From Alphaproteobacteria bacterium (GTDB lineage: Bacteria; Pseudomonadota; Alphaproteobacteria; Rs-D84), in assembly GCA_017630405.1 (NCBI GenBank), contig JAGBVH010000007.1, positions 6,506 to 70,505 of the forward strand: a DNA stretch of 64,000 nt, in the 5' to 3' direction. Made by a program: the position numbers and the translations under genes. The notes under the pieces are model-generated. The model had not been told where the DNA came from and made no database searches. It was given only the letters and a program-made list of their open reading frames with translations. Positions 37,064-52,037 of the stretch are shown in pieces (position 1 is the stretch's first letter; the number at the start of each line of letters is the position of its first letter).

Positions 37064-37150
37064 GCGGATATGGCGAAATTGGTAGACGCGCTAGTTTCAG
37101 GTACTAGTGGTAGCAATACCTTGGAAGTTCGAGTCTTCTTATCCGCACCA
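37064..37150 (+). tRNA. tRNA-Leu (anticodon CAG)
   Basis: Acceptor gcggata pairs with tatccgc. Anticodon loop ttCAGgt. Long variable arm. Encoded CCA. Confidence 0.9.
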
Positions 37151-37155
37151 GTTTT

Positions 37156-37231
37156 GGGGTTGTAGCTCAGTTGATAGAGCGCTACGTTCGCATCGTAGAG
37201 GTCGTGGGTTTGAGTCCCATCAGCTCCACCA
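37156..37231 (+). tRNA. tRNA-Ala (anticodon CGC)
   Basis: Acceptor ggggttg pairs with cagctcc, including G3-U70. Anticodon loop ttCGCat. Encoded CCA. Confidence 0.9.
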
Positions 37232-37237
37232 AGTTTT

Positions 37238-37258
37238 GCCGCGAAACGCGGCTTTATT
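37238..37258 (+). terminator. GC-rich hairpin plus TTTATT between tRNA-Ala and tRNA-Leu(UAA) (weak terminator or processing element)
   Basis: Stem gccgcg, loop aaa, stem cgcggc, followed by tttatt. Confidence 0.35.
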
Positions 37259-37268
37259 AAAAGTCTTC

Positions 37269-37355
37269 GGGGATATGGCGGAATGGTAGACGCTGAGGAC
37301 TTAAAATCCTTTGGTCATTGCGACCGTGTGGGTTCGAGTCCCACTATCCCCACCA
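37269..37355 (+). tRNA. tRNA-Leu (anticodon UAA)
   Basis: Acceptor ggggata pairs with tatcccc. Anticodon loop ctTAAaa. Long variable arm. Encoded CCA. Confidence 0.9.
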
Positions 37356-37374
37356 CACAATTATCTGTATTCTT

Positions 37375-37451
37375 GGATGTGTAGCTCAGCTGGTTAGAGC
37401 GCTTCGTTCACATCGAAGAGGTCGTTGGTTCGAGTCCAATCACATCCACCA
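37375..37451 (+). tRNA. tRNA-Val (anticodon CAC)
   Basis: Acceptor ggatgtg pairs with cacatcc. Anticodon loop ttCACat. T-arm gttggttcgagtccaat. Encoded CCA. Confidence 0.9.
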
Positions 37452-45611: not shown

Positions 45612-45637
45612 AAACCGCCAATTCGGCGGTGTTTTTT
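45612..45637. terminator. Bidirectional terminator (tRNA-Arg / glycosyltransferase genes)
   Basis: Stem accgcc, loop aattc, stem ggcggt, followed by gTTTTTT. Confidence 0.7.
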
Positions 45638-46451
45638 ATCGTGTTATCGGTAGTTTTTCTGGAATTGGCGCACCCGACACTTCATTCGCATAGCAATTTG
45701 GCAAATGACCGATATCTATGGCCTGATAGCCAAGCGCGGCCAAGTCATACGCAAACACAGTCGCCGCAGGGCCACACGCAATCAAAAACAAGCAATCCTT
45801 CGGATAAGATTTGGCCTGTGCCATGACCGCATCATATTCTTCAAACGCATTTTTCGACCCAACCTCGATATGATAATGCTTTTTAATACTTGAAAAAATT
45901 TCTGGTGTAATTTCAAATCGGCCCGCGGACGAATATATAAACACAACTGTACGATCCGCCCATATCTTGCGATATTCCGGAATGCCAGACACTAGAAAAT
46001 CAGAATGTCTTGATATATTTGCATTGGCATAAGTCTCGCGCAGGCGCATCATTGTCAAAATGCTGGGATATCTGGTAAAGTATTCACGAAAGAATCCTGC
46101 CGTTGTTGGACGCGGCGGAATCCCAACCAGACATTTACCGTTTGGATTTTTCAAAATTTGTCGCATGCGGCGTTGCAATTCTGGCGAATTATCCTGATAA
46201 CAAATCTTCTTTTTGCCCAACGCTAAATTAAATTCTCCATCGCCAAGACGCGCCAACGAGGCCCCATTTTGTAATAATTTGACAGTATCTGGGATGCTTA
46301 GCACATTTGGATATGGAAATGGTTTAGAGTATAAAAACCGTTCACGAACCGCACGCCGACCATTGCCCGATGGACAGAACAAAGATGCGACTAATGATAC
46401 CGGCTTCCAAAAATATTTAAGCATAAAAATTTGAAAATTCATTTCAATCAC
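45636..46451 (-). CDS. GT-D type glycosyltransferase (DUF1792 family)
   Basis: SLARLGDGEFNLALGKK is the DUF1792 GDGE motif region. Size is about 270 aa. Confidence 0.65.
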   Translation of the reverse strand: MIEMNFQIFMLKYFWKPVSLVASLFCPSGNGRRAVRERFLYSKPFPYPNVLSIPDTVKLLQNGASLARLGDGEFNLALGKKKICYQDNSPELQRRMRQILKNPNGKCLVGIPPRPTTAGFFREYFTRYPSILTMMRLRETYANANISRHSDFLVSGIPEYRKIWADRTVVFIYSSAGRFEITPEIFSSIKKHYHIEVGSKNAFEEYDAVMAQAKSYPKDCLFLIACGPAATVFAYDLAALGYQAIDIGHLPNCYANEVSGAPIPEKLPITR

Positions 46452-46453
46452 CT

Positions 46454-47359
46454 TTAATAATTTTCTATGATTGCGTTGTAATATTTGCGATATAAATCAA
46501 ATGTAAAGAATCTTTTGACTGTCATATCCCAAGGCTTAATTTTCCCAGCATAATGCAACATCACCGGATAACGCATATCACGATATTGTGTCGCATTCAT
46601 TGTTTTCAAGAAACTGTATCCACCACCAACAATCGCGTTAAACTTTCGCGACATTGATTTAATGCGATTTTTACAGATTGTGTTCAGCATATCTTGGTCC
46701 GGATATCTGGTCTGATTATTTTCCGCCCACTCTATCATTTTTGGATAGATATTATCCTGACGAAACTGTGCAATATTCATAACAAGAAATCCGCTATTGA
46801 TGTATGTAGGGCTGTCAAAGCAACCTGCTAACAAATTCGTTCCAATATCAAACTCATTCGCATCACGCAAATCACGCACGAACAAAGTATCCACATCGGC
46901 ATAGATTATTCTGTCCACCGTTTCAGGCAGCATTTTTGGCAACATACAACGCCACCATATCGCGTGCGACCAGCGACCACAATGCGCGCCGTCATAATCA
47001 TGATTAGGCTTAAGAAATATTATATTTCCATTTGTATGGCGCGCCGATATAAATTTCTTGATTTTATTTTGATGTGTTTTTGTGATATCGGTCACGCAAT
47101 AAATATCGTATTCGCATTCCGGTGAGTTTCCCAATAAAGATGTTATTGCCGTCAATGCCAACGGTATATACTTTTCATTGAAACAGAACGCAACATTTAT
47201 GCGCTTGTTATAATTTGTTGTGTTTGGCGTATAGTTAAACCGCGGGAAAGTAGCCCAGGAAACAAAGTTCTTTTTCGCAACCTTGGTTGGGATAAACAAA
47301 TCGATTATATGTAGTAATCCGCGCTTAATTTTGAAGTAAAATACAGCCAATTTTTCCAT
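46454..47359 (-). CDS. Glycosyltransferase family 8
   Basis: NVAFCFNEKYIPLALTAITSLL, IYADVDTLFVRDL (DxD) and INSGFLVMNI. ATG 47359 has ggggg upstream. The track start at 47395 is a GTG inside the structured region. Confidence 0.8.
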   Translation of the reverse strand: MEKLAVFYFKIKRGLLHIIDLFIPTKVAKKNFVSWATFPRFNYTPNTTNYNKRINVAFCFNEKYIPLALTAITSLLGNSPECEYDIYCVTDITKTHQNKIKKFISARHTNGNIIFLKPNHDYDGAHCGRWSHAIWWRCMLPKMLPETVDRIIYADVDTLFVRDLRDANEFDIGTNLLAGCFDSPTYINSGFLVMNIAQFRQDNIYPKMIEWAENNQTRYPDQDMLNTICKNRIKSMSRKFNAIVGGGYSFLKTMNATQYRDMRYPVMLHYAGKIKPWDMTVKRFFTFDLYRKYYNAIIENY

Positions 47360-47399
47360 ATCTTGCCCCCGTTTTTTGTATAAAATAAAGACCACAAGA

Positions 47400-47640
47400 T
47401 AGTGGTCGGGGAGTTAAGAAAATCATACGAAAGAATGACCCTGTTGGTTTTCGGGAAGCCCCTGTTGTATAACCAACAGCCCCCCGACATAGCGGGGAGC
47501 GCGGCAGTCATATGGACCGCCACACCAGCGGATTCCGGTGCCAACACAGCACCGCTTTCGTAAGGGATTTCTTAAGTCCCTGACACCTGTTCCCACAGGC
47601 ATCACTACTATCGTACAAGAACGAATTCCTAAAGGCAACT
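47400..47640. ncRNA. Candidate structured RNA / riboswitch-like leader of unknown class (strand unresolved)
   Basis: Visibly GC-richer than its flanks. Nested perfect helices: 47405-47411/47482-47488, 47441-47449/47471-47479, 47536-47541/47549-47554, 47563-47567/47577-47581 and 47586-47590/47595-47599. Only implausible ORFs cover it. Confidence 0.4.
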
Positions 47641-47724
47641 GTTTTTAACAATTAGTATGTCGATACATTTTTCTTGCCCGCGGGGATTGGTTGGTCTAGA
47701 CTTAAACAAAAGGACGAATAGGAA

Positions 47725-48186
47725 ATGTTTCGCAATTTTATAATCTTGGCTGCTGCCCTGCCCGCGCTTTGCGCATGCAACAGCATACATATGAAACCAG
47801 ACAGTTTGGATACTGGGACCACTATATATGCGGACCGTGGTGGGCACTCTATGCTTCATAACATAAAGCATCAACTGGAAAATCGCGGATTTGATATCGT
47901 GGTCGGTAAAGCAAAATCCGCGGAAGATATCGGCGATGATTCAAGCAGTATCAAAATCGACAAAAGCGTTGTTCCAAATAATGTACAGTACATAGTCAAA
48001 GTTTCTGAAAGCGAAGAAAAATTTCGCCCTATTTGGTGTGCGCTGAACGGATTCTGGTGGTGGAATTTTAGCGTATCAATTGCGGATCAACGCAATGGAC
48101 AAGAGATTCTTAGTTGGCGAGGTCGTGGGTGCGCGAACAGTTCACTTAGAAAACTAAATGCAATTTTGGATAAAATGGAACAATAA
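47725..48186 (+). CDS. Lipoprotein of unknown function
   Basis: MFRNFIILAAALPALCAC lipobox-like signal. RBS aggacgaatagga. Confidence 0.6.
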   Translation: MFRNFIILAAALPALCACNSIHMKPDSLDTGTTIYADRGGHSMLHNIKHQLENRGFDIVVGKAKSAEDIGDDSSSIKIDKSVVPNNVQYIVKVSESEEKFRPIWCALNGFWWWNFSVSIADQRNGQEILSWRGRGCANSSLRKLNAILDKMEQ

Positions 48187-48187
48187 T

Positions 48188-49399
48188 ATGAAAGTAAAAA
48201 TCTATGCCAGAAACAAAATCAGTAAAGAAATTCAAGAAAGTATCGCAAATACCCATATTATAGCCAACAAGGAATTACAGATAATAACACTGCCCCGGGG
48301 ATTTATATCTGTAGATAATGAACATCGAAACTATGGCGCGTTTGACAGCGATGGACAATTCTGTACAGCAAGCACCTTCTGGCGTTTTGGCAAAAAGAAA
48401 CGCACGCCTAGGTCACCCATGGATATTGTCGATTACATTGATTGTGATGCAGTATATTGTGGGTGGGGCATGACATTTCATTTTGGACATTTCCTGACCG
48501 AGGGACTGGGGCGCGTGTGGCCGGTGCTGGATAAAAAATATGCAAATTGTAAATATGTTTTTATTCAAAAGCCGGATATACCATTCCCAAAATATGCACG
48601 AAAAATTTTGAACTTGATTGGTATACCGGACGAAAATATTATCGTGCTTGATAAAACAACACAGTTTAGAAATCTGATTGTGCCAACACAATGCTTTGAT
48701 TTTAGAACCGCAATATCAAAACGCATGAAGAAAATGTATGACACGATTGCAAGCAATGTTACCCCAGAAAATCACGACACATATGAAAAAATATATTTTT
48801 CCAGGTCTAAACTGGGTGCCAATCGAACATTTGGGGAAGTTAATGTTCAAACCATTTTTGAAAATAATGGGTTCAAAGTCATTTGGCCGGAACAATTGAC
48901 ACTGGATGACCAAATATACCTGGCCAAGAATGCGCGCGTTATTGCCGGTGTTGCGGGGACCGCGTTGCACCTGGGCGTATTTATGAAACCGAACGGTCAA
49001 ATCATTCAACTAAAACGAAACTTGATTCCAGAAGATTGTTCCGATGTACAATATTTGCTGGCATGGTTGCAAAATGCAGATATTACTTTTATTGATGCAA
49101 GCGTCGAAATGAAACGGACAGAACATTCGACCGCCCTGCCACAAATTATTGGTGACACAAAATATCTTGAACAATTCTTGAACGATGCTGGTTTTATATG
49201 GCAAAAAAATGACTTTAAGCGTTATAATGAACGCAAGGAATATTCAAAAGAATTAGTCAAAGCAATATTGGCAAAAGTCCTTAGACGAGTATCTAAGCCA
49301 TTTATTCGTATCATTGCTTTATTTGGAAAAGACAAGCAGAGACGAAAAGAGATTAGAACGCGTCTGGAAGATAAAATCAAAAATATATTTGCTAAATAA
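48188..49399 (+). CDS. Glycosyltransferase, GT61/DUF563-like
   Basis: FHFGHFLTEGLGRVWP and IAGVAGTALHLGVF resemble the DUF563 pattern as recalled. ATG 48188 lies 1 nt after the upstream stop. Confidence 0.5.
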   Translation: MKVKIYARNKISKEIQESIANTHIIANKELQIITLPRGFISVDNEHRNYGAFDSDGQFCTASTFWRFGKKKRTPRSPMDIVDYIDCDAVYCGWGMTFHFGHFLTEGLGRVWPVLDKKYANCKYVFIQKPDIPFPKYARKILNLIGIPDENIIVLDKTTQFRNLIVPTQCFDFRTAISKRMKKMYDTIASNVTPENHDTYEKIYFSRSKLGANRTFGEVNVQTIFENNGFKVIWPEQLTLDDQIYLAKNARVIAGVAGTALHLGVFMKPNGQIIQLKRNLIPEDCSDVQYLLAWLQNADITFIDASVEMKRTEHSTALPQIIGDTKYLEQFLNDAGFIWQKNDFKRYNERKEYSKELVKAILAKVLRRVSKPFIRIIALFGKDKQRRKEIRTRLEDKIKNIFAK

Positions 49400-51627: not shown

Positions 51628-51660
51628 TTATAACCTTTGTGCCTATTATAACTTAAAAAC

Positions 51661-51689
51661 TTGCAATTTCCAGTCTAAAAGAGTATAAT
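51661..51689 (+). promoter_or_regulatory. Consensus sigma70 promoter of ssrA
   Basis: TTGCAA (51661-51666), a 17 nt spacer, then TATAAT (51684-51689). Confidence 0.7.
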
Positions 51690-51695
51690 TGATGG

Positions 51696-52037
51696 GCCAC
51701 GCGAGTGGTGATGATTCTGAAGCCTTTGTGCAATAGTCATTTTGGACTGGGGGGCGGTACCCCACAGCTCCACCATTATTTGATATGATTTTTGGTCGTA
51801 TTTGATTATGGGGCTGACATAGATTCGACAGATGATGAAAGACAAAATGGTTGAATCCGACATGGTGTCGTTAAAAACCAACTAAAAACTGAATGGCGAT
51901 AGAATCGCTGCGAACGACAATGTTCGCCTTGCAATGGCTGCCTAATATGGCGTTGAATACGGTTGGCGATTGTTAGCCGTGTTCGTTTAAGCAATTGCGG
52001 GGTTTGCCGGTACCTGGCACCAGAAATCCGGCGTTTT
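51696..52037 (+). ncRNA. ssrA: Circularly permuted (two-piece) tmRNA gene: acceptor piece to 51775 (..CAGCTCCACCA), spacer, then coding piece from 51810 (GGGGCTGA..)
   Basis: The 3' acceptor strand cagctcc-a-cca (51765-51775) lies upstream of the 5' strand ggggctg (51810-51816). Together they form a 7 bp acceptor with G3-U70. agattcgac D-analogue. Tag ORF GCG AAC GAC AAT GTT CGC CTT GCA ATG GCT GCC TAA (51910-51945) encodes ANDNVRLAMAA. Terminator hairpin at 52006-52037. Confidence 0.85.

Follow-up and report, generated by a model that had tools for sequence, protein, structure and literature searches.

The spacer at 47360-47724 of the window (the whole stretch of 64,000 nucleotides that was analyzed, to which all positions refer) appears, from its sequence, to encode a minus-strand leader RNA of approximately 222 nt, running from about 47603 to 47382. 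By sequence comparison, this RNA is a distant, extended relative of sRNA-Xcc1: its 3' half is a divergent sRNA-Xcc1, to which a separate 5' domain is tied by two long-range pairings (A:A' and B:B') in essentially every copy of the family. The reading that we favor, at slightly better than even odds, is that this self-pairing leader of the Xcc1/c4 type governs an operon of two glycosyltransferase genes, GT8 and GT-D, with transcription termination as its output. The original prediction, which had proposed a novel noncoding RNA or riboswitch, was therefore correct in that a structured RNA occupies a cis-regulatory leader position. However, the RNA is not wholly new, as its 3' half matches the entire sRNA-Xcc1 model below the family threshold, and nothing points to a metabolite ligand.

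The GT8 gene (46454-47359, minus strand; Glyco_transf_8 Pfam match, 1.1e-35) lies within a longer minus-strand open reading frame (46454-47395), of which the true ATG is at 47359-47357, 22 nt after the U-tract of the leader. The corresponding protein start, MEKL or MERL, is kept in the orthologs of two other genomes (G078 and G092), and a Shine-Dalgarno-like GGGGG can be read at 47370-47366. Downstream on the same strand follows the GT-D gene (45636-46451; Pfam GT-D, 7.1e-36), which probably forms a unit with GT8 under control of the leader. On the other side of the spacer, the plus-strand open reading frame at 47725-48186 starts with a lipoprotein-like signal, and no Pfam match was found for it. 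The expected glycosyltransferase and lipoprotein neighbors are thus both in place. The description of the spacer as GC-rich and densely folded also held: its GC content is 0.545 at 47400-47599, compared to approximately 0.34-0.42 in the flanking genes, and the 365 nt fold far better than dinucleotide-shuffled sequence on both strands, with z about -5.5 (-5.41 on the minus and -5.66 on the plus strand; none of 100 shuffles reached this).

A search of both strands against Rfam, which the original prediction had proposed as a check, returned nothing in the spacer at gathering level. A sensitive scan yielded a single meaningful match, to sRNA-Xcc1 (RF02221) on the minus strand (47488 to 47397, model positions 1-87), with 39.9 bits (E 1.5e-5) against a gathering cut-off of 53 bits. 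As this score is below the cut-off but sister copies in the genus pass it (57.8, 55.9, and 55.5 bits), the window copy was filed as a divergent relative rather than as a threshold member. Matches to RF02221 were found in 54 of 100 genus genomes, three above the cut-off, which makes the window copy a divergent member of a continuous lineage. No match to RNase P, SRP, 6S, cobalamin, or other riboswitch families was found in the spacer at E values up to 10. The partial resemblance to the cobalamin core that had been pointed out was not borne out: RF00174 gave no match on either strand at E up to 10, and the cited motifs are not conserved in paralogs.

The Infernal alignment to RF02221 contains the complete three-way junction of sRNA-Xcc1, which spans 47405-47488 on the minus strand and is backed by covariation as well. 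Its closing stem, P1, pairs 47488-47480 with 47413-47405, with a perfect core of 47405-47411 and 47482-47488. P2 (47479-47441) consists of an outer helix (47441-47449 with 47471-47479), an internal loop of AUACAACA/GAAA, and a GGGG-CUUC-CCC tip. P3 (47440-47421) carries in its loop the element B' (CUUUCGUA, 47433-47426), and the junction leading from P3 to P1 holds the element A' (UUUCUUAA, 47421-47414). The domain shares with sRNA-Xcc1 the closing stem P1, the P3 hairpin, and a P2 that has an AUACAA/GAA internal loop and ends in a small hairpin; unlike sRNA-Xcc1, the window RNA measures approximately 220 nt rather than 87, and unlike the RF02221 model it includes a 5' domain (H0, H1 with A, B, and H2) and a strong intrinsic terminator. 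This 5' domain was covered by no Rfam family, also not in 12 canonical Xcc1 loci searched at E up to 0.1, suggesting that RF02221 describes only the 3' half of the RNA.

Upstream of the 5' domain, promoter-like hexamers can be read on the minus strand, TTGCCT (47638-47633) and TACGAT (47615-47610), separated by a 17-nt spacer, which would place the transcription start at about 47603. In 25 homologs, hairpin H0 is preceded at a distance of 5-9 nt by a TATAAT-like -10 element, which often carries TGn; a scan for strict consensus promoters did not call the window copy. H0 itself is a genus-specific hairpin at the 5' end (GAUGCCUGU-GGGA-ACAGGUGUC, 47582-47603), of which the stem (47586-47590 with 47595-47599) is present with all its bases; both sides show changes in all but one of its 8 pairs, and 89.9% of cells are paired. 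It is followed by H1 (AGGGA-CUUAAGAAA-UCCCU, 47563-47581; stem 47563-47567 with 47577-47581), the loop of which contains element A (UUAAGAAA, 47575-47568), the complement of A'. The H1 stem is 88% paired in the alignment of 34 homologs, and its covariation extends to distant members, where it appears as GGGG:CCCC, GAGG:CCUC, or GGCG:CGCC. Element B (UACGAAAG, 47562-47555), the exact reverse complement of B', is the single strand between H1 and the next hairpin, H2a (CGGUGC...GCACCG, within 47555-47528; stem 47536-47541 with 47549-47554), which is 84.8% paired and shows changes on both sides in 5 of 6 pairs. A further hairpin, H2b (47526-47496), differs between subfamilies; together, H2a and H2b make up a variable middle hairpin region (47496-47555).

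All five helices recognized beforehand in the spacer (P2, P1, H2a, H1, and H0) are found where they had been placed. The alternative pairing of agcgg with ccgct (47527-47531 with 47552-47556), which had suggested a switch, does exist in the window copy but was not seen in the other family members. What is conserved instead are the two long-range pairings A:A' and B:B', which had gone unseen. In the window copy, A (UUAAGAAA) pairs with A' (UUUCUUAA) and B (UACGAAAG) with B' (CUUUCGUA), and the minimum free energy fold contains both pairings as well. The same fold also pairs the 5' strand of H1 with the 3' strand of P1; this candidate was rejected, as it is unsupported in distant members, whereas the H1 hairpin covaries.

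Across the family, element B consists of the 7-11 nt directly after H1, and A and B have different sequences in nearly every copy while always matching their partners within it. To describe these homologs, a covariance model, R1, was annotated by hand (224 positions, 45 pairs), since plain MAFFT with RNAalifold missed the 5' domain. In an alignment of 34 homologs to R1 (A7), 92.5% of cells are paired, compared to 74% after shuffling and 39-49% when the partners are slid; changes on both sides occur in 46 of 59 pairs, and the covariation score is 0.558, compared to 0.21 (shuffled) and at most 0.10 (slid). The check for covariation that had been proposed thus came out in favor of selected helices: H0, H1, H2a, P1, P2, P2b, P3, and the terminator are all backed by it among these homologs. 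For the long-range pairings, the counts are 99.5% paired for B:B' (6 of 6 modeled pairs changed on both sides) and 91.7% for A:A' (7 of 7), figures that lean toward these helices, as A7 was fitted to a model already containing both. A duplex test that uses no alignment is free of this bias. In that test, the 5' domain paired with its own antisense segment at a mean of -24.1 kcal/mol, compared to -13.5 kcal/mol (sd 3.4) for non-cognate segments, and the cognate partner came out best for 21 of the 24 copies from the genus and for 20 of the 25 from other Pseudomonadota. When scored with R1, the opposite strand of the five loci in the window genome reached only 18-28 bits, and P3 and the terminator are dominated by G-U pairs; both indicate that the structure is strand-specific.

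The leader ends in an intrinsic terminator detected by a terminator scan (GACCAC-UAUCUU-GUGGUC followed by UUUAUUUU, 47407-47382, minus strand). It has 3 nt in common with P1: GAC (47407-47405) both begins the terminator and ends the 3' strand of P1. The stem has a stability of -8.9 kcal/mol in the window copy, and of -1.0 kcal/mol without the shared GAC. All 34 homologs have a covarying terminator stem with 4-7 U within the next 8 nt; their mean stability is -11.6 kcal/mol, and -4.6 kcal/mol without the 3 nt in common with P1. In 30 of 33 aligned copies, the start codon follows the U-tract at a distance of 2-31 nt, too short to accommodate a separate promoter. With its start codon this close to the terminator, GT8 would be expressed only by read-through.

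From the 3-nt overlap we infer that the terminator and P1 form a terminator/antiterminator device. With the 5' domain docked on the Xcc1 domain through A:A' and B:B', and with P1 fully closed, the terminator stem would be incomplete at the U-tract and transcription would read through into GT8. If docking were to fail, P1 would fray, the terminator would form, and GT8 would be switched off. The direction of this proposed switch follows from the consideration that the pairs adjoining the U-tract weigh most in termination, so that a closed P1, presumably stabilized by docking, should favor read-through, and an undocked RNA should terminate. Docking might be lost when a free molecule of this leader RNA, or some other factor, captures A and B or A' and B'. 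Predicted folds show that a shortened P1 is compatible with the full terminator; given this coexistence and an overlap of only 3 nt, the switch is a kinetic argument rather than a demonstrated one.

Two further candidate elements around P1 were rejected. The linker (CCCYGAC) can form a hairpin with the 5' strand of P1, which might have served as an anti-antiterminator or off-state partner; it forms in most copies without covariation, and in L022 and L025 P1 has changed to the GCCGGGG/CCCCGGC type without a matching linker. In addition, an RCCA-like tail follows P1 in many copies from Alphaproteobacteria, a trait in common with c4 RNAs (see below), and was considered as a mark for RNase P. Here, however, this position belongs to the covarying terminator stem, and the window copy has ACUA rather than RCCA. 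The RNase P RNA of the genome lies on another contig.

In its layout, the leader resembles riboswitch expression platforms and T-box leaders: it is structured and promoter-proximal, its terminator lies just before the start codon, and P1 would compete with the terminator base. A terminator-based riboswitch that senses a metabolite or second messenger would account for a large, multi-helical RNA with pseudoknots in leader position, and the occurrence of several copies before surface-related genes is reminiscent of c-di-GMP riboswitches. Nevertheless, we consider this explanation very unlikely. Rfam yielded no riboswitch (E up to 10), the elements that stand out most are hypervariable addresses rather than a conserved ligand pocket, and, unlike riboswitch and T-box leaders, the RNA has no specifier/tRNA logic, and its overlap with the terminator is only 3 nt. 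The genes behind the leaders are also no metabolic or otherwise coherent regulon. A Pfam scan of 34 downstream proteins returned DNA methylases, Rha, XRE-type HTH regulators, PAP2, YadA anchors, porin-like barrels, and GT2 glycosyltransferases, as well as cysteine-rich proteins with Flg_new or Ephrin_rec_like domains and DUF4268, while many of the other downstream proteins start with a signal peptide. As these genes are functionally unrelated, nothing about them points to a metabolite ligand.

A close parallel to the proposed self-pairing leader is the c4 antisense RNA of phages, in which an a1b1 decoy is followed by the c4 antisense RNA and then by a2b2. In phages P1 and P7, c4 is a three-helix RNA cut from a leader by RNase P, in which variable a' and b' elements base-pair close to where ribosomes bind the following gene; multi-copy C4-like sRNAs are described in Acinetobacter baumannii (PMC5320573). 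The upstream a1b1 copies have been listed as a motif (PMC2864571). The window RNA is likewise a small three-helix RNA embedded in the leader of the gene that it would control, its specificity would come from a few variable bases, and its two short recognition elements pair with upstream copies, A and B corresponding to a1b1. Family members from other Pseudomonadota can additionally pair with copies that flank the ribosome-binding site, as a2b2 does. Unlike c4, however, one of the recognition elements sits in a junction rather than in a loop, and the window copy has no clear a2b2 site and carries a terminator between the RNA and the gene. The C4 model (RF01695) matched neither the spacer (E up to 10) nor any of 12 canonical Xcc1 loci (E up to 0.1), so we claim a shared design and not homology.

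This parallel raises the alternative that the leader is a translational repressor of the c4 type. In read-through transcripts, the C-rich 3' strand of P1 together with A' (GAUUUUCUUAACUCCCC) would then pair with the ribosome-binding region of GT8 (CGGGGGCAAGAUAUGG), the 5' domain would act as a competing decoy, and the terminator would be nothing but the 3' end of the released RNA. The evidence for such a role comes mainly from other Pseudomonadota, where the start region of many Xcc1 loci reads A2-GGAG-B2-AUG, with sites matching the locus's own A' and B'; one example is L066, with the start region CCGAAAAGGAGCAAACAGCCAUG and upstream A (CCGAAAAC) and B (CAAACAG) elements. In these bacteria, the antisense segment pairs better with its own translation start than with others (-17.8 vs. 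-13.0 kcal/mol): the cognate start was the best of all for 9 of 25 copies and among the best three for 14 of 25. The words shared between 5' domain and translation start are also longer within a locus than between loci. Within the genus, this preference is weak (-11.1 vs. -9.5 kcal/mol, rank 1 in 3 of 24), and the sequence shared between 5' domain and translation start is 5.7 nt for cognate and 5.3 nt for non-cognate combinations. A B2 or A2 element near the start codon was found in a few genus copies (L026, L033, L018, and L021), while no second B or A site was found near the GT8 start in the window copy. There, pairing is limited to GGGGG with CUCCCC and AAGA with UCUU, in a duplex of approximately -12 kcal/mol. 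We therefore regard translational repression as an unlikely account of the window copy, and prefer output by termination.

A different explanation, to which we assign a similarly low probability, is that the spacer holds a free-standing gene for a trans-acting sRNA and that its position before GT8 is incidental. In the accessible literature, sRNA-Xcc1 is treated as a free, virulence-linked sRNA, and long-range pairings are not described there; it was detected as an RNA of approximately 88-100 nt in Xanthomonas campestris 8004 (PMC2996969). The promoter-like element and terminator of the window copy would suit such a gene. Arguing against it are the fixed orientation and the distance of 2-31 nt to the start codon, and the fact that the variable loops pair with the 5' domain of the RNA itself. 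Moreover, no Hfq gene was found in the window genome, which is 97.8% complete. The loop of H0 reads ACAGGGAUGU in many copies, which resembles the binding consensus of CsrA. Binding of CsrA to H0 was rejected, since no credible CsrA gene was found in the window genome: the best match, at 19.8 bits, was below the cut-off and lay inside a 583-aa frame.

Five full-length copies scoring 130-185 bits were found with R1 in the window genome, on contigs C2 (the window), C12, C20 (two copies), and C5, preceding genes for GT8, a membrane protein, a Mod-type DNA methylase, a 451-aa secreted cysteine-rich protein, and GT2. Two weaker matches in the same genome (G000:C19:35698-35881, 34.5 bits; G000:C22:13015-13238, 27.4 bits) may be degenerate or very divergent leaders. 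R1 matches were present in 38 of the 41 genus genomes searched, with 1-46 copies each, and most of these leaders precede genes for secreted proteins, glycosyltransferases, DNA methylases, or phage-type proteins. Among sampled genomes, RF02221 was found in 24 of 151 from Alphaproteobacteria and in 31 of 151 from Pseudomonadota, often several times per genome and sometimes in tandem. Like sRNA-Xcc1, the leaders thus occur in multiple copies, on the same strand as and just upstream of accessory or mobile-element genes. sRNA-Xcc1 itself has been found in front of symE in integron cassettes, in front of an ORF6N gene in APSE phages, and in Xylella genomic islands; the genes behind the genus copies, by contrast, are mostly chromosomal and encode surface proteins and glycosyltransferases.

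The leader is not a constant companion of GT8. Two GT8 orthologs (G078 and G092) keep it with different, compensated A and B elements, and four other orthologs lack it. The most extensive set of copies was found in G019, a genome of approximately 1 Mb that carries at least 46 leaders. Among 27 aligned copies from this genome (loci L101-L125 and L040), there are 25 different B elements and 27 unique combinations of A and B, with compensation in every case. Pairwise identity drops from 0.72 outside the addresses to 0.39 in B/B'; where two copies agree at 85-95% of the other positions, their identity in B/B' is only approximately 45%, and for L101 and L108 the values are 0.95 and 0.31. The tandem copies of L040 (154-378 and 670-897) are near-identical except in B and B'.

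Such fast, compensated change of the addresses is hard to explain by drift and suggests selection against cross-talk, which in turn would imply that these RNAs can meet in trans. Helices that act purely in cis would have no reason to diversify so rapidly. On this basis, we tentatively propose, as a possibility that we think less probable than not by some distance, that A/B and A'/B' are private addresses, which would confine the trans pairing of a leader released at its terminator to nascent transcripts from the same locus, giving each locus its own feedback without the need for a protein. If true, this would be a programmable, RNA-only regulatory system for individual genes, derived from a phage immunity RNA and present at 1-46 loci per genome. 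The hypervariable yet always compensated B helix is a natural system in which to study how RNA regulators avoid cross-talk.

The leaders may matter beyond this proposal. Many proteobacterial genomes carry annotations of sRNA-Xcc1 as a free, virulence-linked sRNA of unexplained mechanism, and our data indicate that the Rfam model spans the 3' half of a larger leader that folds back on itself via two covarying address helices. As the same elements match the flanks of the ribosome-binding site outside the genus, a testable c4-like mechanism is at hand for a widespread orphan family. In the gut Alphaproteobacteria with tiny genomes, where up to 46 copies in approximately 1 Mb precede genes for surface proteins and glycosyltransferases, the leader module has multiplied and could be a main setter of surface make-up, apparently without Hfq or CsrA.

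Some loci also bear on how leaders and genes become joined. L054 (G079:C9) and L055 (G074:C14), from two closely related genomes, are 97.5% identical through leader and terminator, after which G074 has a 1.6-kb insertion (approximately 186-1790 in L055) with a gene for a 289-aa membrane protein and a repeat of approximately 269 nt that recurs nearby. In G079, a lipoprotein gene directly follows the leader; in G074, the insertion separates the two. Since the identity ends at the terminator, the junction between leader and gene is also a breakpoint for recombination or insertion. One could therefore ask whether the spacer is not an RNA gene at all but a single-stranded DNA element or a landing pad for recombination, and the presence of sRNA-Xcc1 in integron cassettes (bioRxiv 10.1101/2025.06.18.660453) would agree with this. 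The conserved -10 box, the terminator with its U-tract, and the fixed orientation toward the gene all argue for a transcript, however, and make a DNA element extremely improbable.

A repeated arrangement was observed in L044 (G114:C1:749745-751817), from another alphaproteobacterium, which contains three tandem sRNA-Xcc1 copies above the cut-off, approximately 994 bp apart. Each copy is followed by a small open reading frame, suggesting that a cassette of leader plus gene has been repeated. In several canonical loci from other Pseudomonadota (L059, L065-L067, L071, L072, and L077), the middle of the 5' domain contains a terminator-like hairpin followed by a U-run (ACCGCA...UGCGGUAUUUUUG), suggesting that attenuation may also take place ahead of the Xcc1 domain.

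Within the window, the genes flanking the leader and the small lipoprotein gene encode three glycosyltransferases that differ in fold: GT-D, GT8, and one resembling GT61 (48158-49399); of the glycosyltransferases at 45636-49399, only the GT8/GT-D side sits behind the leader. Other RNA genes in the window include a cluster of five tRNA genes at 37064-37448 and a two-piece (permuted) alphaproteobacterial tmRNA gene at 51657-52035.
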